Below are positions 7,576 to 60,832 of a stretch of 64,000 nt of DNA, piece after piece (positions within the stretch are counted from its first letter, which is position 1; each line of letters opens with the position of its first letter). The DNA lies in IMG/VR virus record IMGVR_UViG_3300025853_000066. One strand, given 5' to 3'. The notes below the pieces were generated by a model. The model worked only from the letters and a program-made list of their open reading frames with translations, searched no databases and had not been told where the DNA came from. The translations under genes were made by a program, and so were the position numbers. Source of the stretch: an uncultured virus (IMG/VR IMGVR_UViG_3300025853_000066) (taxonomy: Duplodnaviria > Heunggongvirae > Uroviricota > Caudoviricetes).

Positions 7576-7576
7576 A

Positions 7577-8566
7577 ATGGCATCAACATATTCAGATCGA
7601 TTAAAATTAGAACTTATGGAAGCTGGCGCAAACGCTGGTATTTGGGGAAATAATACAAATGATAATCTTCAAGTTATTGACGCCGCTGTAGGAGGCTATC
7701 TTACTAAAAATGTTTCTGGTAGCACGAACGTTACTTTAAGTCAAGCGAATCGAGACCCTGATGTTGAAACGACTAATGAAGCTGCCAATAAAGTTATTGA
7801 ATTTACAGGAACACTAACAGGGAATATTTATGTCTACGTTCCTGCTGTAGAAAAAGAATACATCTTTCATAATAATACTTCCGGTAGTTATACTTTAACA
7901 GTTGCTCCTACAGGTCATACAGCAAATGGAGTTGCAGTAAGTCAAGGTGCGCATACGATTATGTATAATAAAAACGGAAACGAAATGGTCGATCTTTTCG
8001 CTAATTCGTTAGGAACGTTAAGTGCTGATACGATTAATGCGACTACTTATACAGGTGATGGATCATCTTTAACGGGGATTCAACCGTTTCCTTCTGGAAC
8101 GAAAATGTTATTTCAACAAACAGCGGCACCAACTGGTTGGACGAAAGATACGACACATAATAATAAAGCGTTACGTGTCGTGACAGGAACAGCAAGTTCG
8201 GGTGGTAGTAATACTTTTTCAGGAGCGTTTAATACAGCTCAAACTGTCAGTGGTACATCAGGAGGTACTTCCGTAACTATTACAGGAAGCACTGCAGGTC
8301 ACGTTCTAACGCAAGCTCAACTTCCTAGCTATACTTTAACACCTTCTCAAAGAGCGAAAACGGAAGATAAAGGAACACTAAATAGAGGATCTTCCTCAGG
8401 TGGTGGTGCGAGTTATGAATATTTAGATATTCCTTCTGGTGGTTCTGATCAAGCGCACAGTCACGGCGTTGGTACTTTAGCTGGTAGTTCTCACACTCAC
8501 TCATTCAGTGATGATTTTAATTTAGACGTTCAATATGTCGATTTAATTATCGCTTCGAAAGATTAA
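7577..8566 (+). CDS. tail fibre protein with collar-like domain
   Basis: MASTYS..LELM..G.WG anchor; FPSGTKMLFQQTAAPTGWTK collar-like segment; H-x-H motifs. Confidence 0.65.
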   Translation: MASTYSDRLKLELMEAGANAGIWGNNTNDNLQVIDAAVGGYLTKNVSGSTNVTLSQANRDPDVETTNEAANKVIEFTGTLTGNIYVYVPAVEKEYIFHNNTSGSYTLTVAPTGHTANGVAVSQGAHTIMYNKNGNEMVDLFANSLGTLSADTINATTYTGDGSSLTGIQPFPSGTKMLFQQTAAPTGWTKDTTHNNKALRVVTGTASSGGSNTFSGAFNTAQTVSGTSGGTSVTITGSTAGHVLTQAQLPSYTLTPSQRAKTEDKGTLNRGSSSGGGASYEYLDIPSGGSDQAHSHGVGTLAGSSHTHSFSDDFNLDVQYVDLIIASKD

Positions 8567-25233: not shown

Positions 25234-26016
25234 TTGTATTTATTTTTTGACACTGAAACAAACGGATTATGGCGTAGAGATTTAGAAGCCAATGATCCAA
25301 ATCAACCTCACTTAGTACAAATAGCTGCACAGTTAGTAGATGAAGATGAAAAAGTTGTTAATCAATATTCAATGCTCATTCGACCAGAAGGTTGGAGCAT
25401 TCCTAAAGATGCTGAAGATATTCATGGAATCTCCAATGAGAAGGCAACTACTTATGGTGTACCTCTTGTTAGTGCCCTCTCTGTGTTTAATTCTATGGCA
25501 GCTTCGGCTCACACACTTGTCGCACACAACTTAGCTTTTGACTTGCAAATTATTGCAAGAGATTTTTTATATTTAAAGAAACCCTTTCGTCAACCTAAAG
25601 ACTTACATTGTACTATGATGAGTACAAAAGATATTTTAAAATTAGAGAGCGATTTTGATGACTATAAGTTTCCTAAGTTAATTGAAACTTATGAACACTT
25701 TTTTAATGTAGGATATTTCGATTGGCACGATGCTTTAGCTGACGTTCAAGTATGTCGAATTATTTATTTTCATTTAAAAAATCAAGGAATTGAATTAAAA
25801 GCCCCACGACAGCTTCCTAAAAAGCTGTTAAAAGTAATGAATAATGACGATTATGAAGAACTAATCGGTTTAATTTCTAAAATAAATAGAGATAATATAA
25901 GCGAGTGGGAGAGTAATTTTCTCAAAGATCAAGAAGAAAGAATAGAGAAGTATAAAGAGAAAGTTATGATCTCCGATAAACAAATGAATATTATTAGGAG
26001 AATGACAGAAAAATGA
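25234..26016 (+). CDS. DnaQ-like (DEDDh) 3'-5' exonuclease
   Basis: FFDTET, AHNLAFD and HDALAD motifs. Confidence 0.9.
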   Translation: MYLFFDTETNGLWRRDLEANDPNQPHLVQIAAQLVDEDEKVVNQYSMLIRPEGWSIPKDAEDIHGISNEKATTYGVPLVSALSVFNSMAASAHTLVAHNLAFDLQIIARDFLYLKKPFRQPKDLHCTMMSTKDILKLESDFDDYKFPKLIETYEHFFNVGYFDWHDALADVQVCRIIYFHLKNQGIELKAPRQLPKKLLKVMNNDDYEELIGLISKINRDNISEWESNFLKDQEERIEKYKEKVMISDKQMNIIRRMTEK

Positions 26017-26963
26017 AAAGAATCGTTGTAACCGGAGCAACTGGATTTCTAGGAAGAAATCTATGTGAGAAGTTATTGGAACAAGGACATCAAGTTATTG
26101 GTGTGGATAATCATTTAACAGGAAGTGAATCTAATATCTTAGATGAAGATAATTACAGTTTTTATGAAGCTGATATCGTTAAAGATGATTTATCAATGCT
26201 TCTTCGAGAACACAATAAAGAAGGAATACATTATATTTATAACTTAGCATGTCCCGCATCACCCGATCACTATAAAACTCATGCGTTTCAAACTTTAGAA
26301 GTTTGTTATAACGGAACTAAAAACATGATTCAGTATGCGTTAGAACAGGGAAATGTTCGTATGCTTCATACTTCGACAAGTGAAGTATATGGAGACCCTC
26401 AAACAGATGATCAAAAAGAAACGTATTGGGGAAATGTAAATTCTTTTGGACCTCGTGCTTGTTATGATGAAGGTAAAAGAGTTGCGGAAGCTTTAATCTA
26501 TGAATCAATAAATAAATTAAAATCAAATATAGGAATCGCAAGAATCTTTAATACTTACGGTCCATACATGGCGATTAATGATGGTAGAGTAATATCGAAT
26601 TTTATTACTCAAGGTTTACAGGGTAATCATCTTATCATATACGGTGGTGGTTTTCAATCTAGATCTTTTTGCTATGTTGATGATACAATAGAAGGTTTAA
26701 TTCGAATCTGTGAAAGCGACTATAAAGAAATATTTAATGTAGGAAATCCTGATCGTTATTCTATTGTAGAGATAGCAGAAGTAATCGCTGAAAAGACTGA
26801 CGCACCGGGTTGGAAAAACGATGCTCCTTCACCTGACGATCCAATGCATCGAAAGCCTAACATAGATAAAATTCAACATTACTTAGGTTGGACTCCTCAA
26901 GTAAAACTAAATCAAGGATTAGATGACACGATAGAATATTTTAAGCATGCTCTCGAAAGATAA
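26013..26963 (+). CDS. uxs: UDP-glucuronate decarboxylase (UDP-xylose synthase)-like SDR
   Basis: TGATGFLG, NLACPASP.HY, STSEVYGDP, YWGNVN..GPRACYDEGKR.AE and RIFNTYGP.M..DGRV.SNF are UXS signature motifs. Confidence 0.85.
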   Translation: MKRIVVTGATGFLGRNLCEKLLEQGHQVIGVDNHLTGSESNILDEDNYSFYEADIVKDDLSMLLREHNKEGIHYIYNLACPASPDHYKTHAFQTLEVCYNGTKNMIQYALEQGNVRMLHTSTSEVYGDPQTDDQKETYWGNVNSFGPRACYDEGKRVAEALIYESINKLKSNIGIARIFNTYGPYMAINDGRVISNFITQGLQGNHLIIYGGGFQSRSFCYVDDTIEGLIRICESDYKEIFNVGNPDRYSIVEIAEVIAEKTDAPGWKNDAPSPDDPMHRKPNIDKIQHYLGWTPQVKLNQGLDDTIEYFKHALER

Positions 26964-28461
26964 AACTAAAATAATTTTAGGTCCGCCTGGTACGGGTAAA
27001 ACCACTACATTATTAAATATTTTAGAAGAAGAAATAGAAAGTGGTATATCACCAGAACGTATTGGCTTCGTGTCATTTACTAGAAGAGCGATTAAAGAAG
27101 CGAGAGATAGAACATTAGAAAAGTTTAAAGAGATTGATAAAGATCAATTAGATTATTTTAGAACACTTCATAGCTTATGTTTTAGATCTCTCGGTCTTAA
27201 TAGTGAAAGAATATTTAAAGGTCTACACGTTATGGAATTTAAAAAGATACTTCGAATCGATATGACAGGCGATGTTGATGAAGAACAAATTGTAAATAAC
27301 GGAGCAAGTTTAGGAGATCGTATGTTATTTTGCGATCAATTAGCTAGGGCAAAGATGTGCCCTTTAAAAGACACGTGGCAAAATTTAAAATGTAATTATT
27401 CGTGGGAAGAACAAAAACTATTTTCCGATACTCTTGTTGATTTTAAAATGAAACGAAATCTTCTTGACTTTACTGATATGCTAAGTTCTTTTCTAGAATC
27501 GGAATATAATCCTGATATTGATATTTTATTTGTTGATGAAGCGCAGGATTTAACGAAACTACAATGGAAAGTTATTGATAAGCTATCGAGTGTCGTTAAA
27601 AAGATTTATATAGCAGGAGATGATGATCAAGCTATTTATAAATGGGCAGGAGCTGACGTAGATACTTTTCTTAATCTTGATGGTGAGATTCGAACACTGC
27701 CGTTTAGTTATCGATTAAAGAAACGAGTTTTTGATTTAGCGAATCAAGTTACAAAAAGAATTGTAAATAGATACGATAAAAATTGGTCTAGTTCAGAGGA
27801 ACAGGGATCAGTAAACTATATTGAATCTTATGAATATGCAAATATGGCAGAAGGAAGTTGGCTTATTTTAGCTAGAAATAATTATCAATTATATCCAATA
27901 GAAAAATATTTAAAGCAGAAAGGATATGTATTTGAAAGAAAGTTTGGTGGCTTTAGAGCGAACAAACACGTGATAGCAATTAGAACTTGGTTAGATTTAA
28001 TTGAAGGAAAAGAAATACCTTACGATTCAATTATGAAGCTTTATAGTTGTATGAGAACAGGAGAAGGAATTACTCGAGGATTTAAAAACGGAAACAGTTT
28101 AGATAAAGAGAAAACTTATACATATAAAGAATTAAAAGATAATCATGGACTTATCGCAATGGGTAAATGGGAAGAAGCTTTAACTTTAATTCCTGATGAC
28201 GATAAATATTACTATCAAGCTTTAGAAAAGACAGGAGATCTTTTTTATAATGAACCGAGAATACGATTAAGCACTATACATGGAAGTAAAGGTGCGGAAG
28301 CTGAGAATGTAATGCTTCTCACTGACGTATCGTATGCTACTTGGAAGAACATAAATGATCAATCTGATGATGAACATCGTGTCTTTTATGTAGGAATTAC
28401 TCGAGCAAAGAATAACTTATATATAGTAAACCCACAAGGATTATATAGTTACCCGATATGA
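26947..28461 (+). CDS. UvrD/Rep-like SF1 helicase
   Basis: GPPGTGKT, VDEAQD, GDDDQAIY, STIHGSKG.E, YVGITRA. Confidence 0.9.
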   Translation: MLSKDKTKIILGPPGTGKTTTLLNILEEEIESGISPERIGFVSFTRRAIKEARDRTLEKFKEIDKDQLDYFRTLHSLCFRSLGLNSERIFKGLHVMEFKKILRIDMTGDVDEEQIVNNGASLGDRMLFCDQLARAKMCPLKDTWQNLKCNYSWEEQKLFSDTLVDFKMKRNLLDFTDMLSSFLESEYNPDIDILFVDEAQDLTKLQWKVIDKLSSVVKKIYIAGDDDQAIYKWAGADVDTFLNLDGEIRTLPFSYRLKKRVFDLANQVTKRIVNRYDKNWSSSEEQGSVNYIESYEYANMAEGSWLILARNNYQLYPIEKYLKQKGYVFERKFGGFRANKHVIAIRTWLDLIEGKEIPYDSIMKLYSCMRTGEGITRGFKNGNSLDKEKTYTYKELKDNHGLIAMGKWEEALTLIPDDDKYYYQALEKTGDLFYNEPRIRLSTIHGSKGAEAENVMLLTDVSYATWKNINDQSDDEHRVFYVGITRAKNNLYIVNPQGLYSYPI

Positions 28462-29105
28462 AAACAAATAAAGAAATTCTAGATTTATTTTTAGAAAGGT
28501 GTGATTCAGAAATCTACGAAGAACCCTACTCAAATATGCATGATAATGTACTGAAGCAACAAGCTGATTTATTTTTAGCTGATTTAAATATTATGAAAGA
28601 AGATAAAATCGTTGACGTAGGATGTGGTTTTGGATTATTTCAACAGTACTTACATGAGAAAGGATATTCTAATACACTAGGAATTACAAAAGCTGAAAAA
28701 GATATTGATAATTTAATTAAGACAGATACTCCTTATCGAACTGCTGATATTACATTTACAGGATTAGATAGTAATTATACAGATCATATATGGTGTCGTC
28801 ATTGTATTGAACATAGTCCTTTTCCCTATTTAACGTTTTTAGAATTTAATCGTATTATGAAAATAGGAGGCTTTCTTTATTTAGAAATGCCTGCGCCTGA
28901 TCAACCGGCGATTCAAGAACATAAAAGGAATCATTATTCTGTTCTTCCAAAAGAAATGTGGGCAAGCTTATTACTTCGTTCCGGTTTTAAAATTTTAAAA
29001 TTTGGAGGGATAGATATGAAATTAAAACGACCAGATGAAGATGAGTATTCAGAAAAGTGGTACTACTATATATCACAAAAAATTGAAGAAAAATCTTTGT
29101 TTTAA
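28458..29105 (+). CDS. class I SAM-dependent methyltransferase
   Basis: VDVGCGFG motif I; HCIEH..EFNRIMKIGG. Confidence 0.8.
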   Translation: MKTNKEILDLFLERCDSEIYEEPYSNMHDNVLKQQADLFLADLNIMKEDKIVDVGCGFGLFQQYLHEKGYSNTLGITKAEKDIDNLIKTDTPYRTADITFTGLDSNYTDHIWCRHCIEHSPFPYLTFLEFNRIMKIGGFLYLEMPAPDQPAIQEHKRNHYSVLPKEMWASLLLRSGFKILKFGGIDMKLKRPDEDEYSEKWYYYISQKIEEKSLF

Positions 29106-29157
29106 ATGCGAAATAAGTTATTATTATTCTAATTAGAAAGGAGCACGATTTTATAAC

Positions 29158-30213
29158 ATGACTATGAACGCAATCGGAAGCCATATATTTGCTGGTGGAT
29201 TTACTCTTGGAGTAGAAAAGCACTTCAATGTTTTGGCGCATTTTGAAGGTGATGGTGCTTATGGCGCTGACACGTTTGCTTTAAATAGACCGAATATACC
29301 AGTTTTTTCTGGACCTTCTAACTGGCCGGTTAAAGATTTCGAAGGTAAAGTTGATTTCGTTTATGGGAACCCTCCTTGTGCTCCTTGGTCAACACTAGGA
29401 ACGGGCGGTCGCAAAGATTTAGACTGGCGAGATGATCCTCGCATTGAAGCATGGTCTCATGTTTTTTCTCTTTTACACGATCTACAACCTAAAGCTTTAG
29501 CGATTGAGTCCGTTCCGAGAGTATTTGCAAAAACAGGAGGGCGGCCGATGATTGAAAGTTTTACAGAAAAAGCAATAAAAGCTGGATACAAAGTTACTCA
29601 TTTTTTAGTAGATGGTCAATACACAAATTTAAATCATAGTAGAAGAAGATTCTTTTTCTTAGCACATAAAGGAGGCTTGTCGTTTCCTCGATTGAATTGG
29701 AACCCTGCTCCTACGATTGCAGAAGTTTTAGCAGAAGTACCTGATCCTGGACATATGAATAGTTTCACTAAAACAGAAGCTGAATTAGTTTCTCAATGTG
29801 GTCAAGGAGAACAGTTAAGAACTGTATGGGAAAAGTTAAATCCACCAGAAACTTGGCAACGATCTGAGAAAGGAAGAAGAGGAGTTAAAGGTAGACCTCA
29901 GTTTATGAAATGGAGATTAAGGGCACATAAACCTGCGGGTGTTATCGCAGGAGGGTTTTATATTCACCCTACGGAAGATAGATTATTAGGTCATAAAGAA
30001 TTGGCTCACTTCTCTGGATATCCTCAAGATTATAAATGGGCCGGTCCTCCGTCTGGTTGGGGATCATTAATCGCACGATCAGTAATGCCACCTGTTGGTG
30101 AGTTCGTTGCGAGAGTAGTTAAAAATTCGATTGCTTCAAACGAAGAAGCAAAAGAAGATGTACAGTTAGTGGATTATACAAAGCCACCTGCTATGGAGGA
30201 TTTATTTGCATGA
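29158..30213 (+). CDS. C5 DNA cytosine methyltransferase (divergent motifs)
   Basis: IFAGGF (motif I-like), GNPPC (IV), IESV (VI; canonical ENV), SRRR (VIII), GYP..Y and SVMPPV (IX/X). Confidence 0.8.
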   Translation: MTMNAIGSHIFAGGFTLGVEKHFNVLAHFEGDGAYGADTFALNRPNIPVFSGPSNWPVKDFEGKVDFVYGNPPCAPWSTLGTGGRKDLDWRDDPRIEAWSHVFSLLHDLQPKALAIESVPRVFAKTGGRPMIESFTEKAIKAGYKVTHFLVDGQYTNLNHSRRRFFFLAHKGGLSFPRLNWNPAPTIAEVLAEVPDPGHMNSFTKTEAELVSQCGQGEQLRTVWEKLNPPETWQRSEKGRRGVKGRPQFMKWRLRAHKPAGVIAGGFYIHPTEDRLLGHKELAHFSGYPQDYKWAGPPSGWGSLIARSVMPPVGEFVARVVKNSIASNEEAKEDVQLVDYTKPPAMEDLFA

Positions 30214-30587
30214 GTCAGTATAAAGATATTGATGCTTTTCATAAAAAGTTTAAATTTAATCAAGGTAAAGGAATTAAGTCAATGGATTATAATTTCGGTA
30301 ATTGGCGTGTTGACTTTATCATGGAAGAGATTGCTGAGTTGACTGAAGCTTTAGATAATAAAGATGATGTAGAAATATTAGATGCTTTAGTTGATATCTG
30401 CTATGTGGCAATGGGAACAGCGTGGTTGATGGGTTTACCTTTTGAGGAAGCATGGAAAGAAGTACAACGATCTAACATGGAAAAGATTCGACAAGCAAGT
30501 GAACGATCTGAATTTGACGTAGTTAAACCTGAAGGTTGGAAGAAACCTGATATACGAGGAATTATTAAGAAATGGCAAAAGTCTTAA
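30210..30587 (+). CDS. MazG-like all-alpha NTP pyrophosphohydrolase
   Basis: EEIAEL..EILDALVDICYV..EVQRSNM.K..KPEGWKKPD. Confidence 0.85.
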   Translation: MSQYKDIDAFHKKFKFNQGKGIKSMDYNFGNWRVDFIMEEIAELTEALDNKDDVEILDALVDICYVAMGTAWLMGLPFEEAWKEVQRSNMEKIRQASERSEFDVVKPEGWKKPDIRGIIKKWQKS

Positions 30588-31612
30588 TTACAGGATTCAC
30601 TGCTAAAGGAATTGGTAGTGGTGATAATAAATTAAATATCGCAACTAGTGCGAATCTACTTCCGAAAGCATTAAAGCTAGCAGGTCACGAAGTAATTCAA
30701 AAACCAATTATACCAGGTGATGATGTATCGGAATACGATCACGTATTTGTTTTTATGTTTCCCCCTAATAGTTTACCAAGTGCTTATACTTATGGTGCGA
30801 TGTACACTTTAGCTAAAAGACCTGATGCTATCTGTGCTCTTGACGATTGGCAAACAAAAGACGTTCCTTCTGGCTTCGCTACATTTGCAAGAGAAGGCCA
30901 TTGGCGTTTATGGAAAACACAGACAAAGTCTGGTGCTCCTATGAAGAAACGATACTACGATCAAGCACTTGACTATAAGCAAGAATTAAACGACCTATGT
31001 ACTACAATGGGATTTGAAGAATGGCCTTATAGATGTCTTGCACCAGTGTATAGAACTGGTAATATTGAAGCATTAGGTATAAAAGCGAAAGAATTAATTT
31101 CATGGGATCCGACTCCTATTTGCGATTCCTACATGGAAACGCCTACAGATCTATTTAGTATTGATCAACAGGTAGACATTAAAAATAAAGAGAAAAAATG
31201 GGTCTATGCTTCTCTTATACAAAAGCCAGGTTGGTTAGAAAAAACACATGGTGAATGGGAAGTACAAGCTTATGGTAATAAGAACTTAGGTCAAGAAAGA
31301 ATTAGTGAACATGAACTATATAAAGTGTATCAGAAATCATGGGGAGTATTAGTACCGCCTCATTATCATACTTTAAGAAAAAGTGGTTGGTGGCGTGTAC
31401 GATATGGAATGATTAGAGATGCTCAATGCGTTACTGTAGGAGATCCTACGGAGTTATCAATCTTTTTTGAAGATAGGATTAAATCAAGAAAATCAATCGA
31501 GTTAATGAGTGATAGTGAATTAAAAGATTATCGAGATAAGCAACTATTAGATTATGAAGATATATTCTGGTCTAAAGAGGAATTAAAAAACTTTATAATA
31601 GATTTATTATGA
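30572..31612 (+). CDS. putative GT-B glycosyltransferase (T4 beta-glucosyltransferase-like)
   Basis: 346 aa; N-terminal Rossmann strand, AL..AGHEV, DVSEYDHVFV, LDD at the position of the BGT catalytic Asp, C-terminal WW.RVR. Similarity judged by eye only. Confidence 0.5.
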   Translation: MAKVLITGFTAKGIGSGDNKLNIATSANLLPKALKLAGHEVIQKPIIPGDDVSEYDHVFVFMFPPNSLPSAYTYGAMYTLAKRPDAICALDDWQTKDVPSGFATFAREGHWRLWKTQTKSGAPMKKRYYDQALDYKQELNDLCTTMGFEEWPYRCLAPVYRTGNIEALGIKAKELISWDPTPICDSYMETPTDLFSIDQQVDIKNKEKKWVYASLIQKPGWLEKTHGEWEVQAYGNKNLGQERISEHELYKVYQKSWGVLVPPHYHTLRKSGWWRVRYGMIRDAQCVTVGDPTELSIFFEDRIKSRKSIELMSDSELKDYRDKQLLDYEDIFWSKEELKNFIIDLL

Positions 31613-32160
31613 ATGGAATATTAATTGTAGAAGGCCCCGATGGTGCTGGTAAGACTACATTAATTAATAAACTTAGAAATCATTGGCTATTTGAAACTCG
31701 CTATATGCATCTTCGAGTGCATAAAGAAATGGAAAAGTGGCATTGCGCTACTGCGAGAAGAGCCATTCGATTATCAAAAGACTATCTTGTTATCTTAGAT
31801 CGACATTGGCCGAGTGAGCAAATCTATTCTTATGAACGAGCACCTGGTCCAAGCTATAATCCTATGAATATGGTTGATTGGCTAAAGAGTCATGGTGCAA
31901 TTTATATATGGGCTATACCAGAAGATTATGAAAGATTGATTGAAGAACATAAGACTAGAAGAGAAGAAAGACACGAAGAGTATCACGATATAACGAATGT
32001 TGTTAAAAGATATTATGATCATTGGTACGGTACTTATGAAGGGCCAGATAACTATTTAAAGAAGATACAACCATTAAATAAAAGAGATGACTTCATACGA
32101 TACGATCGGTTTACTGATAAAGATATTTTAGATAGAATAATAGATAAGTTAAGACCATAG
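31609..32160 (+). CDS. dNMP (thymidylate-like) kinase
   Basis: VEGPDGAGKTT P-loop; LDRHWPSE.IY. Confidence 0.85.
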   Translation: MNGILIVEGPDGAGKTTLINKLRNHWLFETRYMHLRVHKEMEKWHCATARRAIRLSKDYLVILDRHWPSEQIYSYERAPGPSYNPMNMVDWLKSHGAIYIWAIPEDYERLIEEHKTRREERHEEYHDITNVVKRYYDHWYGTYEGPDNYLKKIQPLNKRDDFIRYDRFTDKDILDRIIDKLRP

Positions 32161-32174
32161 AAAGGAAGAAAGCA

Positions 32175-32954
32175 ATGCCTATGAATCATGCTAATGAAGT
32201 CTATCGCAATCTACTTGATGAAGTAGAAGATAGAGGATTCGGAGCAGACCCTCGTGGTATGTTTACGAAAGAGATTATCGGACATACGACTAGATGTGAT
32301 ATGAGTTCACCTATCGTTACGATACCAGAAAGAGAACTTGGATATAAGTTCATGTTCGCTGAAGCACACTGGATACTATCAGGTGATAATCGAGTATCAA
32401 CAATTAAACCTTACTCTAACGTTATTAAAAGATTTAGTGATGACGGAGTATTTTATTTCGGAGCCTACGGCCCTAAAGTCGTAGATCAGTTACCTTATAT
32501 CTGTAAAGCTTTAAATGACGATATAACGACACGTCAAGCTTGTATTAATATATGGAGAGAGAAACCACCCGTATCGAAAGACGTGCCTTGCACGTTATCT
32601 TTACAGTTCTTAGTTCGAAGAGATACTTTATATGTGATTGCGAATATGAGAAGTAATGACGTATGGCTCGGTTGGCCTTACGATAACTTTAACTTTAGTA
32701 TGATCGGTTTATCTGTCTGTCTTTTAATGAAAGAAATTCATGGTAAAGATCTTAAATTAGGAATGCTGACGAATAATGCGGGTAGTCGACATCTTTATAA
32801 AGAGAACTTTGAAAAGGCTTATAAAGTGATAGATTCTAAAGAAATGGGTAATTCCTATCCAACTTTTAAACCTGAAAACTTTAACAGCTTTGAAGATTTA
32901 AAGCAACAATTAAACACGTGGAAAGATAATCCTAGTGAATTTTTTACAACATAG
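32175..32954 (+). CDS. thymidylate synthase homologue with dCMP-type specificity residue (dCMP hydroxymethylase/methylase-like)
   Basis: DVPCT catalytic Cys; MRSNDVWLGWPYD has Asp where ThyA has Asn. Confidence 0.8.
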   Translation: MPMNHANEVYRNLLDEVEDRGFGADPRGMFTKEIIGHTTRCDMSSPIVTIPERELGYKFMFAEAHWILSGDNRVSTIKPYSNVIKRFSDDGVFYFGAYGPKVVDQLPYICKALNDDITTRQACINIWREKPPVSKDVPCTLSLQFLVRRDTLYVIANMRSNDVWLGWPYDNFNFSMIGLSVCLLMKEIHGKDLKLGMLTNNAGSRHLYKENFEKAYKVIDSKEMGNSYPTFKPENFNSFEDLKQQLNTWKDNPSEFFTT

Positions 32955-33396
32955 ACCTTCGAAAGATGAATACTTTATGGATATGGCACTCCTTGTGTCA
33001 GAGAGAAGTACGTGTCTTAGAAGAAAAGTTGGTGCTGTTTTAATTAATAAAAGAAAACATGTTCTTGCGACAGGGTATAACGGTGTGGCATCAGGACAAC
33101 CTCATTGTTTAGATATACCCTGCATTGGTGCTAACTCAGCATCAGGAACTGATTTAGATTTATGTGAAGCTGTTCATGCGGAACAGAACGCACTCCTTCA
33201 GTGTAAAAATGTGTTTGAAATCGATACTTGCTACGTTACAGTATCTCCTTGCATGACGTGTACTAAGTTATTATTAAATACGAGTTGTCAAACTATTATC
33301 TTTGAAGAAGATTACGTTGATCAAAAAGCAAGATTATTATGGGAACGACACGATAGAAAGTGGGTAAGGATTGACGGATCTTTTCAAACCCACTAG
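32935..33396 (+). CDS. dCMP deaminase
   Basis: RSTC.RR.VGA, TGYNG, HAEQNA, SPCMTC zinc motif. Confidence 0.9.
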   Translation: MNFLQHRPSKDEYFMDMALLVSERSTCLRRKVGAVLINKRKHVLATGYNGVASGQPHCLDIPCIGANSASGTDLDLCEAVHAEQNALLQCKNVFEIDTCYVTVSPCMTCTKLLLNTSCQTIIFEEDYVDQKARLLWERHDRKWVRIDGSFQTH

Positions 33397-40716: not shown

Positions 40717-41079
40717 ATGGCTTTATCAACCGATACCCAAAAGGGTAAATCAAAGACGCCAAAAGCTGTAAAAGCAAAGGGCGCAAAAGAAACTAAGAGT
40801 AAGGTAGTACCTACTCCTAGAGAAAAACAAGGCACATATAAGTACGACAGAGATGCTCGTATACAAGTATGTGTAGAGAAGAATCCAAAGAGAGAAGGCT
40901 CTAAGGGTTACAAGATGTTTGAGATCTACAAGAATGGAATTACCATTCGTGAGTTTCTCGAAGCAGGTGGTAGAACTATTGATATCGATTGGGATAGAGA
41001 GCGTGGTTTTATCGCTACAGAAGATAGAGACAAAGAAGGTATGGGAAGTAAAACTCCTAAAGCGACATTCACTTTATAA
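40717..41079 (+). CDS. basic NPK-GS domain protein (paralogue 1)
   Basis: NPKREGSKGY..TIREFLEAGGRTIDIDWD; Lys-rich N-terminal tail. Confidence 0.7.
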   Translation: MALSTDTQKGKSKTPKAVKAKGAKETKSKVVPTPREKQGTYKYDRDARIQVCVEKNPKREGSKGYKMFEIYKNGITIREFLEAGGRTIDIDWDRERGFIATEDRDKEGMGSKTPKATFTL

Positions 41080-41376: not shown

Positions 41377-41447
41377 GATTAAATCAGCAAACTACCATTA
41401 TAGTTTTATTACTGTTATTAGTTTTAAAACAATACGGTGTCTTATGA
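41373..41447 (+). CDS. 24-aa hydrophobic peptide (not in ORF track)
   Basis: ATGA-coupled at both ends; MRLNQQTTIIVLLLLLVLKQYGVL. Confidence 0.5.
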   Translation: MRLNQQTTIIVLLLLLVLKQYGVL

Positions 41448-41974
41448 ATATCTTTGCTTTATCACGATGTGCTCAAACGTCAGCTGAATGGCTATGCGAT
41501 AAGCATGTCGTGAAGATGATATTAGAGACAGGCCAGATGTTATCAACAGCTCATCATGTCTTAGAATCTGAACATCTTGGTAAATATAAATATTACGAAC
41601 CAGCTTATGTAAATCACCCGTGTACAGTATGGGCCAGAACTAGTCATGCTAACTATTTCTGGCTATACGAACACTTCGAAAGATTGTGCCAATTATATGA
41701 GGAGATCTATAACAGAACTCATAAGACTTGGGTTAAACTTCATACCGCTTGTCGTATGAGTCCATTTAAATTATCTGGTCCATTTAAAACGCCAGATTCA
41801 GATGTTGCTCAGCTTACCGAGTTTCCTCAGTGTATGCCAGATCAATATAAAGATACTGACCCTCACATAGCATATCGTAGATATTACATAGGTGAGAAAT
41901 TACATTTCGCAGAATACAAAAGTAGAAAGATTCCTGCGTGGATTACTAATAAAGATGTTTATCTTGATAATTAA
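41444..41974 (+). CDS. pyrimidine-dimer glycosylase (DenV)-related conserved phage protein
   Basis: MNIF.L..CDKHVVKMILE..QMLSTAH..NHPC..W..NY.WL..PQCMPD.YK..AYR.YY motif. Confidence 0.7.
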   Translation: MNIFALSRCAQTSAEWLCDKHVVKMILETGQMLSTAHHVLESEHLGKYKYYEPAYVNHPCTVWARTSHANYFWLYEHFERLCQLYEEIYNRTHKTWVKLHTACRMSPFKLSGPFKTPDSDVAQLTEFPQCMPDQYKDTDPHIAYRRYYIGEKLHFAEYKSRKIPAWITNKDVYLDN

Positions 41975-44144: not shown

Positions 44145-44606
44145 ATGGATAAAGGACCCGATAATATTATTGATTTTACTAGTGCAGAAAATAAGATTTT
44201 ATCAGACAAGGAAAAGAAGTTTGTTGAATTCATATTTCAAGGTTTAGGTAAGAAACAAGCGGCTTTGGAAGCCGGTTATGCTCAATCTGCAGCGCACGTT
44301 CAAGCGACACGCCTACTAAAGAAAGATAAAATACGCAAGGCCCTTGATCGATTACGCTCTCTTCAACACCAACAAACAGTTCATACGATGGACAAAGAGA
44401 TCGAAGCGATTGATGCCATGATCCAAGAAGCTCGAGATAGAGGGCAAATTGGTGCAGCGGTTCAGGCCGCTCGACTCAAGGCACAAATGTTAGGGTACCT
44501 TGTTGATAAGAAAGAGATTAAGACAACAAACCTTGACACCATGAGCGAGGACGACATCGTCAATTACCTTGATTCCCTCAAAGCATCCTACAGCAACACG
44601 CAGTAA
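44145..44606 (+). CDS. terS: terminase small subunit
   Basis: LSDKEKKFV..QAALEAGY..A...ATRLLK HTH pattern of TerS; KA.MLG..VDK. Confidence 0.8.
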   Translation: MDKGPDNIIDFTSAENKILSDKEKKFVEFIFQGLGKKQAALEAGYAQSAAHVQATRLLKKDKIRKALDRLRSLQHQQTVHTMDKEIEAIDAMIQEARDRGQIGAAVQAARLKAQMLGYLVDKKEIKTTNLDTMSEDDIVNYLDSLKASYSNTQ

Positions 44607-44608
44607 GC

Positions 44609-44740
44609 GTGGTTGATGGTTGTTGATTGTTGACCCTTGACTCTTGATCAGTAATGTACAACCCGGATCCAGGAGTACGGAGTACGGGATCACGCAACAA
44701 CATACCAGGATCTTTGTACAAGTCTGTACAACCCGGATCA
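44609..44740. repeat. TTGA 7-bp repeats with GATC/GTAC cluster (patch A)
   Basis: ttgaccc-ttgactc-ttgatca; five GATC and five GTAC; TGTACAACCCGGATC at 44655 and 44725. Confidence 0.8.
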
Positions 44741-44832
44741 ACGAAAAAATTAAATGTCATTATTTATAATAAAGATGTTTACTTCTGTTAATTATTTTAG
44801 TAAAATAAAGCAACAATAAAGGAGAAAGAAAA

Positions 44833-45192
44833 ATGAAAAAAACCGAAACTAAACTACCTAGAACTGTTAATCAAATCGGAAACGATATCTGTCTTTTTAG
44901 ATTGGTTAACCCGAAACAAGACGGAAGTAAATCGCATGAGATTTACTCAAAAGCACAGAAAGCTACTACGATCAAGGAAGCTTTCGAACAGGGTTACAGA
45001 ACTATTGATATCGCATACGATAGCATGAGTAATGGGAAGTTTAAGAAACCTAATGTACTTATCGCAAGATATCTTAAAAAAGACCATAAGGAATTATACT
45101 TGACATTCCTTAAGGAATTTGAGGGAGTCAAGCTTTCACCTCAAATGGAAAAGAATGTGAAGGAATTCACAGCATTAGTTAACAAATTATAA
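44833..45192 (+). CDS. NPK-GS domain protein (paralogue 2)
   Basis: RLVNPKQDGSKSH..TTIKEAFEQGYRTIDIAYD; promoter TTTACT-17-TAAAAT and AAGGAGAAAG RBS. Confidence 0.7.
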   Translation: MKKTETKLPRTVNQIGNDICLFRLVNPKQDGSKSHEIYSKAQKATTIKEAFEQGYRTIDIAYDSMSNGKFKKPNVLIARYLKKDHKELYLTFLKEFEGVKLSPQMEKNVKEFTALVNKL

Positions 45193-45200
45193 TTCGAATT

Positions 45201-45225
45201 GGGGACCTTCGGGTCCCCTTTTTTT
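45201..45225 (+). terminator. intrinsic terminator
   Basis: ggggacc-ttcg-ggtcccc followed by T7. Confidence 0.9.
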
Positions 45226-45228
45226 ATT

Positions 45229-45373
45229 CTTGATCGATTGATCCCTGTTGATCAGTTGATCCTTGACTCTTGATCATTGACGTTTGTCGTTAGACAAAGT
45301 ACGTAGTTCGTAGTTTGTCTATAATAAACAATCAATTGCGCTTCGTAAGCAAAGCTCTGCGCAACTCTGATCA
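45229..45373. repeat. TTGATC repeat / GATC cluster (patch B)
   Basis: Six GATC; CCTTGACTCTTGATCA at 45261 identical to 44635. Confidence 0.8.
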
Positions 45374-45440
45374 ACTAAATAATATTATTTGTTTAGAATT
45401 GATTTTATTTAAAATATTCTAATTTTAGAAAGGAAAGAAT

Positions 45441-45503
45441 ATGGACTTAATACTGTATATACTACTAATTGCTTTTATAGCTATTACTACTACGCAATTT
45501 TAA
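45441..45503 (+). CDS. 20-aa hydrophobic micropeptide MDLILYILLIAFIAITTTQF
   Basis: AGAAAGGAAAG RBS; similar to 40591. Confidence 0.5.
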   Translation: MDLILYILLIAFIAITTTQF

Positions 45504-45631
45504 GTTCTTTATAAAGAAATATATTTAATAAAAAAAATTAAAAAAAGTTAAAAAATAATTTTACTTTTTTTAAAAAATATGAAATAAATATACTATTCTT
45601 TAATATAAAGAATAAAGAAAGGAAAAAGAAA

Positions 45632-46021
45632 ATGAATAAAACTAAAGTAGAAGAAAAAGGAAAAGGAAAACTAAATAAATTTCCTTCTTCTTTAATAAGA
45701 ATTAAAGATAATTTAATTCTTCATAGATTAGTAAACGATAAAAAAGGAAAATCGTTTACTAGATTAGAGAATTATAAATTCTCTACTACTATAGAAAATT
45801 CCGTTAAAAACGGAATGAATAAAGACGATTACGATTATAATACTTCTAAATTAAAAACTATCTATTCGATAGATTTAAATAATCTAAGAAAAGAAAATAA
45901 ACTTAGATACTTAGATACTATTAATCTTAATCTTTCATTTCTTAAAGATAGTAAAATAACTAATAAAGATGAATTATTATCTTTAAATAAGAAAGCGTTA
46001 GAAGAAGTAAATAAATTATAA
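45632..46021 (+). CDS. divergent NPK-GS family protein (paralogue 3), extremely AT-rich
   Basis: K(L/F)P..RLVN..KS..TTI....G..D..Y and C-terminal VNKL shared with 44833. Confidence 0.65.
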   Translation: MNKTKVEEKGKGKLNKFPSSLIRIKDNLILHRLVNDKKGKSFTRLENYKFSTTIENSVKNGMNKDDYDYNTSKLKTIYSIDLNNLRKENKLRYLDTINLNLSFLKDSKITNKDELLSLNKKALEEVNKL

Positions 46022-46031
46022 TCTTAATTTT

Positions 46032-46065
46032 TTCTAGAGAGAGTAAATACTCTCTCTAGAATTTT
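46032..46065 (+). terminator. intrinsic terminator
   Basis: ttctagagagagt-aaat-actctctctagaa followed by tttt. Confidence 0.75.
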
Positions 46066-46189
46066 CGATTAAGTTTATAGAAAAAAATTTCGTATAAGTT
46101 TCAAAAAACGAAAGGGCGGCTGATAAAGAGGATCGAAGAGCCGCAACAAATGGCTTTTATGTGTATAAATTTCGTATATAAATAAATAA

Positions 46190-46840
46190 ATGGCTTTTCT
46201 TACTGTCAATATTCCCCCTATTGAAGTTTATGTGAAAAAAGAGTATCTTTACGACCATGAAAAAGGTCATGGAGAATTTGAAAAAGGCGTGTGGGTCACT
46301 GCTAAGTCGATTACCGGCCGAGCTTTGTATTTCGAAACGTACTTATATAATTCTGGCGCTCTTTATGATAAGTTGCCTATATCTGCTTTCTGCTCAAAGC
46401 TAGTAGATAAAGACGATAGCTTACCATTAGAAGAGTTACAGTTATGGGATTGTTTTAGCTATCATGTAGCTGTAATCCAGAAATGTAATCCCGGGACAGG
46501 GCGTTGCAAGTATTTATCCCCAAGTAAAAATTGGCACTACGGAACTTATTTGTTCACGATAGATTCTGCTCACCCTGATCCTAATATTCCTGATGTCGGA
46601 TATTCCGAAGTCCCGAGCCAACATAAGTCGTTTAATATTCTCGAACTAGATAACGGCCACTATGCGGCGCAACCGAATAATCGAATAATTTTTTATGATA
46701 AAAGCTTGTCTCCCAAAAAAATGATGTTCCCTGACTATAAAGTTTCGACTATTGAATATAGTGTCGAGCATCATTCTAAATGGGTCGCAGGCGATGATGA
46801 AAGTTTCTTTTATGAACTTAGAGATACTACAAAAAGCTGA
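46190..46840 (+). CDS. conserved phage hypothetical protein
   Basis: NIPP..V.KEYLYD..GHGEF..LPISAF..LQLWDCFSY..AAQPNNR motif recurrent in aquatic phages. Confidence 0.7.
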   Translation: MAFLTVNIPPIEVYVKKEYLYDHEKGHGEFEKGVWVTAKSITGRALYFETYLYNSGALYDKLPISAFCSKLVDKDDSLPLEELQLWDCFSYHVAVIQKCNPGTGRCKYLSPSKNWHYGTYLFTIDSAHPDPNIPDVGYSEVPSQHKSFNILELDNGHYAAQPNNRIIFYDKSLSPKKMMFPDYKVSTIEYSVEHHSKWVAGDDESFFYELRDTTKS

Positions 46841-48320
46841 ACAGATAATCTTAGATAAAAACGCTCCTCAAGAGATTCGAGAAAAAGCGTTCTTAGTCAT
46901 CAAGAATCAAAAAGAAAAACAGGAAGTATCTGGAGCACAAACTTCCATATTAAAGTTCGCTCAACACATGTATAACGGGTATAGTACTCCTGCCCATATA
47001 CAATTAATCGCTAAAAATTTGGAAGCATTAGAACGAGATGAATTTGATCGTCTAGCAATTTTTATGCCGCCAAGACATGGAAAGTCAATGCTATGTTCCG
47101 AAATGTTCCCTGCCTGGTTTCTTGGAAGGAATCCAAAAAATTTCGTTATTCAATCTACGTATGCTCAAGAACTAGCTGATGATTTTGGACGCAAGGTGCG
47201 TAACCACGTGAAATCGGAAGAGTTCTTAAAAGTTTTTCCGAACACGGCACTTCGAGATGATTCTACTTCAGCGAAACGTTTTCACACCGTTCAAGGTGGA
47301 ACATACTCAGCAGTCGGTGCGGGCGGCGCAATTACCGGTCGTGGTGCACACTTACTCATTATTGATGATCCGATTAAAGGGCGAGAAGATGCGGAATCTC
47401 AAGTTCAAAGAAGGAATTTGATTGAATGGTATAAGTCAGTCGCATTTACACGATTAATGCCGGGCGGAAAAGTCATCATTATTCAAACACGATGGCACGA
47501 AGAAGATCTCGCCGGTTTCGTTTTAGAAAATGAACCAGGGCAGTGGAAAGTTTTAGATCTTCCTGCGATTAACGATAACGGGGATGCTCTCTGGCCCGAA
47601 GCCTATCCTCTCGAAAAATTAAAAAAGATTCAAGCGACAGTCGGAGAAAGAGTGTGGCAATCTCTCTACCAGCAGAAGCCAAGTGCGGAGCAAGGGCAAA
47701 TCTTAAAAAGAGATTGGTGGAGAGTATGGGATAAGAAAAGATTCCCAGCGTGTCATACGATCATTCAATCGTGGGACACTGCTTTCTCAGCGAAACAGTC
47801 CGCTGACTATTCCGCAAGAACAACTTGGGGTGTGTTTACACATATAGACGAAGAAGGAAAAGATCAAGCTTGTATTATTTTATTAGAAGCGTGGCGTAAT
47901 CGTGTCGAGTATCCTGAACTACGAAAAGAGGCTCAACAATCATTTTTCGATTGGAAGCCCGATGTCGTTTTAGTCGAGAAACGAGCATCAGGTCAAAGCT
48001 TACTTCAAGATCTACGAAGAGCAGGGATCCCTGTGAAAGAATTTACACCCGATCGAGATAAAGTTTCCAGAGCCCATGTCGTAGCTTCCATGTTAGAAAC
48101 GGGACTAATTTGGATTCCGAATGAAGCGTGGGTCGATGATTTAGTTGAAGAATGTGCTTCTTTTCCTTATGGAAAGCACGACGATTTAGTCGATACGTCA
48201 ACTCAAGCGTGGCAGCTGATACGAGATAACTATTTAGTTTCTCACCCGAACGATCCTGAAGATGAAGAATGGGACGATAAACCTTATCGAGTCATACAGA
48301 AAAAGTCCTTTTACAGTTAA
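46812..48320 (+). CDS. terL: terminase large subunit
   Basis: MPPRHGKS Walker A, IIDDP Walker B, QSWDTA and HDDLVD nuclease motifs. Exact start uncertain (46752-46812). Confidence 0.95.
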   Translation: MNLEILQKAEQIILDKNAPQEIREKAFLVIKNQKEKQEVSGAQTSILKFAQHMYNGYSTPAHIQLIAKNLEALERDEFDRLAIFMPPRHGKSMLCSEMFPAWFLGRNPKNFVIQSTYAQELADDFGRKVRNHVKSEEFLKVFPNTALRDDSTSAKRFHTVQGGTYSAVGAGGAITGRGAHLLIIDDPIKGREDAESQVQRRNLIEWYKSVAFTRLMPGGKVIIIQTRWHEEDLAGFVLENEPGQWKVLDLPAINDNGDALWPEAYPLEKLKKIQATVGERVWQSLYQQKPSAEQGQILKRDWWRVWDKKRFPACHTIIQSWDTAFSAKQSADYSARTTWGVFTHIDEEGKDQACIILLEAWRNRVEYPELRKEAQQSFFDWKPDVVLVEKRASGQSLLQDLRRAGIPVKEFTPDRDKVSRAHVVASMLETGLIWIPNEAWVDDLVEECASFPYGKHDDLVDTSTQAWQLIRDNYLVSHPNDPEDEEWDDKPYRVIQKKSFYS

Positions 48321-52149: not shown

Positions 52150-52306
52150 AAGAGATTTATCTGAACGAACTGTTAATCCAGGATTTGATACTCACGAACA
52201 ATATATCAAAACTATTGGAATAGTTCATGGTTTAGATAGAGCCAGAGATATTATTAAAGATATTTCTGAACGATACATGAAAGGAGATATACTCGAAGAT
52301 GAGTAA
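52103..52306 (+). CDS. conserved hypothetical protein between portal and GroES
   Basis: Y....G...GL motif; GAGG RBS. Confidence 0.6.
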   Translation: MLKLTEAILEEIKKLRRDLSERTVNPGFDTHEQYIKTIGIVHGLDRARDIIKDISERYMKGDILEDE

Positions 52307-52676
52307 TATTATCATGAATAATGATTGGCACACCGATAGTGATGTCGCTGATCCAAAAGAACTACCAATCCCGTGTGGATTTCGAATACTCATTCGACCA
52401 ATCGCACCGATTAAAAAAACGAAAGGTGGAATTATCTTAACTGATAAAGCTGTAGAAGATCAAGCTTATCTTAATAGCAAAGGAAGAGTTCTTGCTATGG
52501 GAGATGAATGTTACGATAAAAGCCAAAAACCGTGGTGTACAATTGGCGACTATGTTGTATATGGTAGATATGCAGGAAGTAAGATTGACGTAGGTGGCGT
52601 TAAGATGCTCTTGTTAAATGATGATGAGATATTAGCAGTTTTACCAAACCCTGATATCTTAACAACTAAAGTATAA
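52299..52676 (+). CDS. groES: co-chaperonin GroES
   Basis: P.GFRILI.P..KTKGGIIL..G.VLAMG..GD.V..Y.G..LLNDDEILAV. Confidence 0.9.
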   Translation: MSNIIMNNDWHTDSDVADPKELPIPCGFRILIRPIAPIKKTKGGIILTDKAVEDQAYLNSKGRVLAMGDECYDKSQKPWCTIGDYVVYGRYAGSKIDVGGVKMLLLNDDEILAVLPNPDILTTKV

Positions 52677-59260: not shown

Positions 59261-59680
59261 ATGGCAATATCGCAAGCACTCTGTACTGTATTTAAGCAGG
59301 ATTTAATGGACGCAGGACAAGATCTGACTTCAGCAACATTAAAGATAGCTTTATATACTAGTTCAGCAACTTTAGACGGAACAACAACCGCCTATTCTAC
59401 ATCTAATGAAGTAACCGGAACAGGTTACACTGCGGGTGGAGAAACATTAACAAACGTAGTCGTTGCAACAGACGGAACGACAGCTTATCTCGATTGTGAT
59501 AACGTATCATGGTCAAGTGCTACAATTACAGCAAGAGGAGCGTTAATTTATAATAACTCTAACTCTAATTCAGCTATTTGTGTACTCGATTTTACAACTG
59601 ATAAGTCATCTTCAAATGGAACATTTGAGATACAGTTTCCAGCACCTGGTGCTAGTACTGCGTTAATTAGAATTGCTTAA
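59261..59680 (+). CDS. structural (tail) protein
   Basis: FK..L..KIALY..NEV.GTGYTAGG..ITARGALIYN motif. Confidence 0.65.
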   Translation: MAISQALCTVFKQDLMDAGQDLTSATLKIALYTSSATLDGTTTAYSTSNEVTGTGYTAGGETLTNVVVATDGTTAYLDCDNVSWSSATITARGALIYNNSNSNSAICVLDFTTDKSSSNGTFEIQFPAPGASTALIRIA

Positions 59681-60060
59681 TGGCGTTTGTATTAAACGAT
59701 AGAGTAAAGGAAGAAACAACTACAACTGGTACAGGTACCATTTCTTTAGATGGCGCAGTTGATGGTTTCGAATCTTTTGTATCAGGAATAGGCAACAGTA
59801 ATAATACTTACTATGCAATAGTAGGAGGTTCTGAATGGGAAGTAGGAATCGGAACAGTTACTGATGCTACTCCTGATACTTTATCGAGAGATACAATATT
59901 AACTAGTTCTAATTCAGATAATGCTGTTAATTTTAGTGCTGGTACGAAATCTGTATTTTGTACTTTACCTGCTTCAAAAACAGTATACATTGATAGTGAT
60001 GGCAACACTGTAGGAGCGGCCTCCGAAGCATTTGCTATTACAATGGCGGCAAGTTTATAA
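59680..60060 (+). CDS. tail fibre anchor protein
   Basis: DRVKE.TTTTGTG..WEVG.G..VFCT.PA motif. Confidence 0.65.
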   Translation: MAFVLNDRVKEETTTTGTGTISLDGAVDGFESFVSGIGNSNNTYYAIVGGSEWEVGIGTVTDATPDTLSRDTILTSSNSDNAVNFSAGTKSVFCTLPASKTVYIDSDGNTVGAASEAFAITMAASL

Positions 60061-60389: not shown

Positions 60390-60832
60390 TGGCTTATATC
60401 GGTGCAGCTCCTCGTAATAATTTTGCAAGTTTAACCAGTCAACAGATTACTGGTGATGGTGGTTCTGTTTATACTTTAGATCGTCAAGTCACTGTACCCG
60501 AAGATTTGGCTTTGTTCGTCAATGAGGTGAGGCAGAATCCGAACACTTATACAATTTCCAATAGTGGACTTCAATTAAACTTAGGGGGAAATATCTCTGC
60601 GAGTGATACTTGTTATGTGGTCTACTTACAACAAACTTTAGAATCAGTTGGCCCGACACCAAGCACCGTGCAAGGCACAGCGTGTGCTCCTCAATTCTTT
60701 CAAAACAATCAACAGACTTTTAATGATTTAACTTTACCTGCCAATAGAAATTGCTCACTGGTAGGAACAATAACTGTAGCAGCAGGTAACACTATTACTA
60801 TTCCTGCTACCTCAACCTTGGTGATCATATGA
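60389..60832 (+). CDS. tail adaptor protein (MAYIG-type), paralogue of 154
   Basis: MAYIG..P, V.Q.P..Y and C-terminal TITI..T.VI shared with 154. Confidence 0.6.
   Translation: MAYIGAAPRNNFASLTSQQITGDGGSVYTLDRQVTVPEDLALFVNEVRQNPNTYTISNSGLQLNLGGNISASDTCYVVYLQQTLESVGPTPSTVQGTACAPQFFQNNQQTFNDLTLPANRNCSLVGTITVAAGNTITIPATSTLVII

Follow-up and report, generated by a model that had tools for sequence, protein, structure and literature searches.

Why should a phage carry, between its two terminase genes, a stretch of DNA almost emptied of the dinucleotides CA and TG? The question is raised by 64,000 nucleotides of an uncultured member of the Caudoviricetes (IMG/VR record IMGVR_UViG_3300025853_000066; hereafter the window), the DNA of a marine tailed phage in which the small and large terminase genes (terS and terL) start at positions 44145 and 46752. 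Between them sits an island of about 730 bp containing a 20-aa ORF, a 129-aa gene and a terminator (Table 1); its 726 nt hold 3 CA, 9 TG, 2 CC and 7 GG. A preliminary description, made from the letters alone, had counted 2 CA, 3 TG, 1 GC and 8 CG against 36 C in the 390-nt ORF at 45632-46021, had placed all five CA/TG within TCAT or ATGA, and had noted the lack of Gln, Cys and Trp codons and a single Ala codon, compared with five Gln in the paralogue at 44833. Recounting gave exactly these numbers (with 189 A in the ORF, and the five CA/TG at 45633, 45722, 45816, 45936 and 45970). The depletion is not due to base composition: none of 20,000 shuffles of either kind came down to a CA+TG count of 5, the expectation being 30.9 ± 4.2 (minimum 15) when bases were shuffled and 18.8 ± 2.8 (minimum 9) when the order of codons was shuffled. 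At the codon usage of the genome, the same protein would carry 9.1 TG and 14.7 CA, against 2 of each. The ORF is alone among 78 genes in having both TG and CA below a quarter of the codon-usage expectation, and a single one of 159 sliding windows of 400 nt falls below a CA+TG ratio of 0.6, at 0.16. An artefact of composition or codon usage is thus rejected by both kinds of shuffle and by the codon-usage test. GC had also been named among the missing dinucleotides, but its deficit falls short of significance (p about 0.07), and in a distant clade described below GC occurs at a normal level (median ratio 1.08); it was dropped from the purged word.

Table 1. Features of the window around the island and in the nucleotide-modification region.
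Feature	Position	Strand	Basis or remark
Rest of nucleotide-modification region	26013..33396	+	
Nucleotide-sugar epimerase	26013	+	
Class I methyltransferase	28458	+	
C5-cytosine DNA methyltransferase, putative	29158..30213	+	PF00145, E 1.3e-22
MazG-like pyrophosphatase	30210	+	
Glycosyltransferase-like protein	30572..31612	+	Without Pfam match; some relatives so annotated
dNMP kinase	31609	+	
Thymidylate-synthase (TS) homologue with dCMP-hydroxymethylase signature	32175..32954	+	N177D, L143D, D169 kept
dCMP deaminase	32935	+	
Third, more distant homologue of the N-terminal module	40717..41079	+	Alignment
Terminase small subunit (terS)	44145..44606	+	Pfam Terminase_2, E 2.4e-10
Sigma-70-like promoter match ahead of paralogue	44778-44806		
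Unscrubbed paralogue, 119 aa	44833..45192	+	31% identity over 97 aa, E 2e-6
Terminator of paralogue, G/C-run	45201-45218		
GATC-rich (TTGATC) repeat patch, stops at left border	45229..45375	.	Repeat analysis
C[A/C]-poor island	45376..46101	.	18% G+C, sharp borders
20-aa hydrophobic ORF	45441..45503	+	AGAAAGG ribosome-binding site ahead; translated ORF
Scrubbed gene, 129 aa, function-unassigned family	45632..46021	+	Without Gln, Cys or Trp
Terminator-like hairpin	46032..46061	+	Stem without CA, TG, CC, GG
Right border, two tandem TTTCG(T)ATTAAGTTT-like motif copies	46060..46108	+	Repeat family D11; conserved in both clades
Terminase large subunit (terL)	46752..48320	+	Profile and sequence matches

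The borders of the island were drawn from a profile over 21+59 unique loci. On the left, the GATC-dense patch that the preliminary description had seen upstream is made of TTGATC repeats that end where the island begins, and in the pooled loci the density of GATC peaks 800-1000 nt upstream of the border motif. TTGATC/GGATC patches of this kind (44608-44745 and 45229-45375) stand one ahead of each paralogue cassette, in both clades, and are possibly packaging or methylation-sensing sites. The right border motif consists of tandem units of 12-14 bp with a spacing of about 25 bp, hardly varies even between phages with terminases only about 63% alike, and is a candidate terminase or replication site. 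The contig ends of 159 loci (among the matches listed) showed no pile-up at a single position and so gave no support to the preliminary suggestion that this segment may enter the cell first. The island gene has an AGAAAG site and a terminator-like hairpin, and no promoter match was scored ahead of it; promoter-like sites number 5, against 7.9 in shuffles. The two terminators differ as well, that of the paralogue, whose CA/TG content is normal, being built of G and C runs, whereas the stem in the island avoids CA, TG, CC and GG. Related loci have a short hydrophobic ORF at the same place as the 20-aa ORF (judged by eye). In three loci (L012, L023 and L047), the phrog_3704 gene that normally lies between island and terL is absent and terL follows the island directly. 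Elsewhere in the window are a pyrimidine-dimer DNA glycosylase-like gene (Pfam Pyr_excise, 41444-41974) and a GroES-like gene (52299-52676, by position and resemblance to annotated relatives).

Homologous loci from a widespread group of marine phages share the purge: it is present in each of 24 close loci and in each of 80 from a distant (sister) clade. A second allele, 50-64% alike, is as poor in CA/TG as that of the window, and a profile search returned 36 proteins at E values up to 0.001, many of them without Gln, Cys, Trp or His. The sister-clade sample comprises 80 of the 96 loci matched with one of these proteins: 61 of them have no more than one CA+TG and 72 no more than three (maximum 12), 69 are free of CC and GG, CG is enriched 2.5-6.4-fold and GC is normal. 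The genes terS and/or terL flank the island in 79 of the 80, in the same order, and the wrong order occurs in none. Used alone as a query, the border motif retrieved at least 217 loci; in the 118 unique ones among the matches listed, the 500 nt upstream of the border have a median CA+TG of 0 (at most 5 in 98 of the 118 segments), as opposed to a median of 64 downstream. These locus sets overlap and are related, and therefore are not independent trials. No island was found near terL in HTVC023P, HTVC027P, 023Pt_psg01, DSL-LC04, CRP-902 or 12 loci with 42-47% terminases, nor in the examined parts of AXL3 (40 of 47 kb), PhiJL001 (45 of 64 kb), HTVC200P, two spring phages, DSL-LC01 and Mareelih.

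Which word is avoided can be read from the remnants. Among the matches listed, residual CA in the 118 islands is mostly TCA (176/232) and residual TG mostly TGA (65/76), so that the avoided word is approximately V-C-[A/C]. The purged word is CA/TG, joined by CC/GG in the sister clade (in the window's clade CC/GG are weakly reduced, ratio 0.58-0.73), and the purge is strictest where C is not preceded by T. Strand-asymmetric alleles also exist: L207, L243, L335 and L228 (500 nt upstream of the border) and L154 (3635-4003) hold many CA and 0-1 TG on the coding strand. The upstream gene copy is free of TG in 1 of 13 copies (that of L154).

The strands bear on one alternative, in which a bulky modified C in the template would hinder the host RNA polymerase and the phage would have purged its own mark from its first-expressed gene for the sake of transcription. 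The template strand is the cleaner one in the 118 islands among the matches listed, with 76 residual coding-strand TG (31 of them in ATGA) against 232 CA; L207 has 24 CA and no TG, the upstream copy of L154 has 31 and none, and the purge spans upstream region, gene and terminator. We nevertheless regard this alternative as unlikely: in the majority of islands both strands are clean (median 0, among the matches listed), the window's paralogue and other small upstream genes are unscrubbed, and T4 early genes are transcribed from glucosylated DNA.

The cost of the purge is borne by the protein. The 152 unique island ORFs, pooled, contain 0.26% Gln, 0.18% His, 0.12% Met, 0.01% Trp and no Cys. Where Asn, Asp, Tyr or Phe codons precede a G, 744 end in C and 50 in T, compared with 97 and 208 in eight control genes; this preference for C-ending codons is active avoidance. 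The start codon is affected too. In 16 of the 152 alleles an early Met is lacking and an in-frame ATA lies 8-9 nt after AGAAAG, and in 10 of these 16 it immediately follows an in-frame stop (the set is 16 of 17 ORFs without early Met, L225 being left out). The ATA alleles (L184, L186, L189, L196, L203, L204, L216, L238, L245, L325, L330, L338, L348, L355, L364 and L156) are 65-98% alike and occur in separate parts of the tree; a rough count puts their pN/pS at 0.25. ATA is probably a natural start codon in this conserved gene, and the ATA alleles, to judge from their sequences, stay under purifying selection. Selection at the DNA level would have been intense enough to rid a conserved family of five amino acids and to swap ATG for ATA; gene callers would miss such ATA-start genes.

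Mutation instead of selection could be responsible if local methylation or deamination had turned C into T at CA and CC while selection on the protein kept the immune codons. Fungal repeat-induced point mutation (RIP) is a parallel. Moreover, a C5-methyltransferase and a deaminase are encoded by the phage, the scrubbed gene is a duplicate, and ATA is what stands in place of all 16 lost start codons. Simulated complete C-to-T change at C[A/C] gave the flanks 15-19% G+C and a CG ratio of 2.1-3.6, values near those of the islands. However, the signature of a RIP-like process, in which the loss of CA/TG is matched by a gain of TA without any gain of CG, is not present. The TA ratio is 0.93-1.02 in the islands against 1.12-1.22 in the simulation, and CG is about doubled in the sister clade, at 35.8 per kb in the islands where genome and paralogues have 14.6-19.5. 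C-to-T change cannot yield such an increase, which counts against hypermutation there; the argument is weaker in the window's clade, because CG density (23.0 per kb) is not raised in its islands. Hypermutation also leaves the loss of GATC and GANTC (see below) without explanation, and 48 of the 80 sister-clade loci contain terS and a single, scrubbed copy, so that the scrubbed gene would be the core and the normal copy optional. We consider hypermutation quite improbable.

The islands have lost more than C[A/C]. The absence of GATC, also part of the preliminary description, is weak evidence in the window's island alone (P = 0.20, 2,000 dinucleotide shuffles) and strong in 79 non-redundant islands pooled, which hold 10 GATC where 202 are expected, 10 GANTC where 248 are expected and 0 GCGC where 37 are expected; in the rest of the window GATC stands at 1.0 and GANTC at 0.75. 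GATC is the Dam motif. GANTC is the methylated motif of Pelagibacter (PMC9516812, excerpt). Conversely, TCGA is present in 70 and AGCT in 72 of the 79 islands, and AAGCTT, ATCGAT and TCTAGA occur at 0.91-0.95 of expectation, though they are strongly avoided elsewhere in the records G002 and G003; the steps GA, AG, CT and CG are enriched. Because these five sites persist, plain avoidance of restriction sites fits less well, and what the islands have kept and lost matches an absence of modified bases better than an absence of restriction sites.

The same counts weigh on three further alternatives. The island might be unmodifiable, for example a terminal repeat copied during packaging, and lack the targets of a short-site nuclease, the phage's or the host's, that cuts unmodified C[A/C]. 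The fixed terS/terL neighbourhood in 79/80 loci, the conserved tandem border motif, the loss of GATC, GANTC and GCGC and nuclease-like genes at 17342 and 35226 are compatible with such a nuclease; the persistence of TCGA, AGCT and the three 6-bp sites is not, and no nuclease with C[A/C] specificity was identified, which makes this rather unlikely. A physical requirement for stiff, unkinked A/T-rich DNA at the start of packaging, in ejection or in melting would suit an island that adjoins the terminase genes, since CA/TG is the most flexible dinucleotide step; yet TA and CG, flexible pyrimidine-purine steps as well, are kept or enriched, and the loss of CC/GG, GATC and GANTC speaks against it, so that it is the most improbable of all the alternatives. 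Finally, the avoidance of many host restriction sites might add up in a first-injected region, for which the murciaviruses set a precedent (PMC12455610, excerpt) and with which the loss of GATC, GANTC and GCGC agrees. This is highly unlikely, given that many palindromes persist, that GA, AG, CT and CG, common in restriction sites, are enriched, and that avoiding a mixture of sites would not be expected to hit just one class of dinucleotide in two clades.

A mark on CA should also be visible outside the islands. In all four sister-clade contigs, 6-bp palindromes with CA are not depleted (median 0.86-1.01) whereas those without CA are (0.16-0.56; p = 2e-4, 8e-5, 0.024 and 0.006, without correction for the 13 sequences and two tests). 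A protective mark on CA would have this effect. CA palindromes are likewise spared in Pbunavirus 14-1 (p 0.003) and Wifcevirus ECML-117 (p 0.001; both uncorrected). Four controls were negative and one was borderline (part of HTVC027P, p 0.047, uncorrected). Neither the window (p 0.54) nor its close relative G008 (p 0.15) shows the signature. In pooled classes over six marine records, CA palindromes other than CATG/TCA/CAT reach 0.84-1.16 and those without CA or CC 0.24-0.72; by this measure the contrast in the window (0.84 vs 0.68) is no larger than that of AXL3. A separate shortage concerns CGCG, with 1 site in 63 kb of the window against about 60 expected and ratios of 0.00-0.02 in G002-G005, G008 and the window; CTTAAG, TCGCGA and CGNCG are low in the same records.

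Genes that could place such a mark are encoded in the window. The best solved relative of the TS homologue is the CMP 5-hydroxymethylase MilA (E 1e-20), and its motifs DVPC and RSNDVWLGWPYD align with MilA and ThyA and are kept in the sister clade. Hydroxymethylases of dCMP are recognised by Asp at ThyA N177, an acidic residue at L143, the catalytic Cys and Asp at D169 (PMC13326640, excerpt); all of these residues, in the manner of T4 gp42 and MilA, are found in the homologue, which is a putative dCMP-hydroxymethylase-type enzyme. The D169N change of the RB69-type 5-hydroxy-dCMP synthase is absent, RSND keeping Asp at 169. The C5-methyltransferase scored 81 bits against a cut-off of 22, with GNPPC aligned to M.HaeIII, and its relatives are distant (23-27%). 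Among five sister contigs, the C5-methyltransferase was found in 3, the TS-like enzyme in 3 and the glycosyltransferase-like protein in 4, the misses being fragments. A similar set of these three genes (window 28458-33396) is carried by a spring phage (MW202657, L079). The TS-like enzyme of AXL3 is 48% identical to that of the window; AXL3 resists 35 of 37 restriction enzymes, and the two that cut have A/T-only sites (PMC7504290, excerpt). No T-pathway genes were seen among 43 window proteins scanned, and both the dCMP signature of the TS homologue and the additional loss of CC/GG speak against thymine hypermodification at TG as the cause. Of the earlier suggestion that the segment lacks restriction or modification targets, the part on modification is favoured by the cytosine-modification cluster, the sister-clade palindromes and the loss of GATC and GANTC, and the part on restriction sites fits less well.

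The island protein was compared with known families and folds. It had no Pfam, PHROG or PADLOC family, and its first structure model (pLDDT 63) gave zero Foldseek matches in PDB or viral libraries. The model of the paralogue (pLDDT 90.5), which serves for the family, predicts a small alpha/beta module followed by a helical hairpin; it had no PDB match above Z 3.3 (best VIA Z 3.3), a search of the ESM Atlas returned unnamed viral clusters only, and the best Foldseek match was gp18 of PhiJL001 (prob 0.95, E 0.2). The same gp18 is the sole GenBank phage relative of the module, found by Foldseek and tblastn, and is related to the third homologue in the window (tblastn E 3e-5, 40%). Its gene is not scrubbed; a glucosyltransferase gene lies four genes further on and a hydroxymethylase gene six. 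The N-terminal module also occurs, often repeated and without a Pfam model, in long eukaryote-like proteins (P0071, P0073 and P0076-P0082); two of these have PHD fingers, and in one a dioxygenase-like motif was seen by eye. Its presence in PHD-finger proteins and the position of gp18 near modification genes hint that the island protein might bind DNA or a modified base, a lead only. The preliminary description had proposed an anti-defence or takeover protein, and we likewise infer that it may be an anti-defence factor.

The explanation that we prefer, with a probability of about one half, is that the island is a self-contained cassette, probably expressed early and free of modification, from which the C[A/C] mark of the phage itself and host methylation motifs are kept out, so that it evades modification-dependent defence. 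The phage would make 5-hydroxymethylcytosine DNA and add a second, context-dependent mark at C[A/C], either a sugar (by the glycosyltransferase) or a methyl group (by the C5-methyltransferase). This mark would shield most of the genome from type II enzymes and would itself be the target of modification-dependent nucleases. The cassette, read before the counter-defence stands, would be written in steps that neither the phage enzyme nor common host adenine methyltransferases can mark, and its protein, by binding DNA or the modification sensor, would protect the remaining genome. What the sequences show directly is a conserved, sharply bounded purge, the price that protein and start codon pay for it, and the accompanying lack of GATC and GANTC. 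The cytosine-modification genes, the resistance of AXL3, the palindromes of the sister clade and the place of gp18 in PhiJL001 speak for the explanation too. Several points stand against it: if all C were hydroxymethylated, the island would still carry modified C at CT and CG and the C5-methyltransferase would lack a substrate, and the window and G008 are without the palindrome signature and their clade shows the weak reduction of CC/GG. Likewise adverse are the short patch and the unscrubbed gp88 of 14-1 (see below), the lack of an island in the examined parts of AXL3 and PhiJL001, the unscrubbed gp18, and contig ends that do not pile up.

No dinucleotide-purged phage cassette was described in the literature searched (mostly open-access, main texts). 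With the T4-type hydroxymethylcytosine systems, the window phage shares the TS homologue with N177D and an acidic L143, a dNMP kinase, a pyrophosphatase and a glycosyltransferase-like gene (PMC13326640 and PMC13216743, excerpts), to which it adds the C5-methyltransferase and the class I methyltransferase. Excerpts of these two sources and of PMC12191111 describe no purged cassette in T4-type systems, and that of PMC13216743 gives no sequence context for the T4 glucosyltransferase. By modifying its DNA a phage gains protection from restriction enzymes but becomes vulnerable to modification-dependent nucleases, and how it survives the first minutes is known mostly from the proteins that T4 injects, its inhibitors being delivered as proteins during entry (PMC12191111, excerpt). 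An unmarkable cassette would, if true, be a purely sequence-encoded solution. The HTVC023P/HTVC027P-type pelagiphages have the closest GenBank large terminases (43-45%) and a similar gene order with terS and terL apart, but no CA/TG-poor island within 17 kb around terL and no tblastn match to the island protein.

In Pbunavirus, hypermodification affects the T of TG (PMC12191111, excerpt). Phage 14-1 thus resembles the window phage in having a dinucleotide-specific modification (putative here) and spared CA palindromes (here in the sister clade), and differs in that its chemistry is that of thymine, not cytosine as predicted for the window phage. Its anti-END1 (gp88) is a small inhibitor of a modification-sensing nuclease (PMC12191111, excerpt). 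The prediction that this proven anti-END gene would sit in a purged island failed: 14-1 has only a CA/TG-poor patch of about 250 nt and no long island, and gp88 has a normal CA/TG ratio. Next to that patch (60401-60650 in the record, L171), positions 59401-60000 hold 71 CA and 10 TG. Conversely, in Wifcevirus ECML-117, a distant relative of Pbunavirus (PMC11990801, excerpt), an island at 6801-8400 has CA/TG ratios of 0.16-0.45, with CG about doubled and CC/GG near normal; it belongs to another lineage and differs in its length of about 1.6 kb, its undiminished G+C and its several small genes. The purged word therefore varies by lineage as the respective chemistry would predict, TG alone where T is modified and C[A/C] with loss of G+C where C is. 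More tentatively, and as something short of an even chance, phages that hypermodify dinucleotides may have evolved cassettes purged of their own motif and of host methylation motifs more than once, C[A/C] in the marine phages and TG in Wifcevirus, even where this costs Gln, Cys, Trp, His and the ATG start, such that an inhibitor of modification-dependent defence is expressed from mark-free DNA. If so, sequence alone would suffice to read the modification motif of an uncultured phage from its purged word, and the enclosed gene would be a ready candidate inhibitor.

A functional likeness is to the murciaviruses and the first-step-transfer DNA of T5, likewise a bounded segment under stricter selection and thought to be expressed before protection (PMC12455610; BF23, PMC10644984; excerpts). 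The avoided words differ, since those phages avoid host sites of 6 bases or more, whereas the island purges whole dinucleotides, probably the target of the phage's own modification. By this analogy, the island may work like the site-free early regions of T5 and the murciaviruses.
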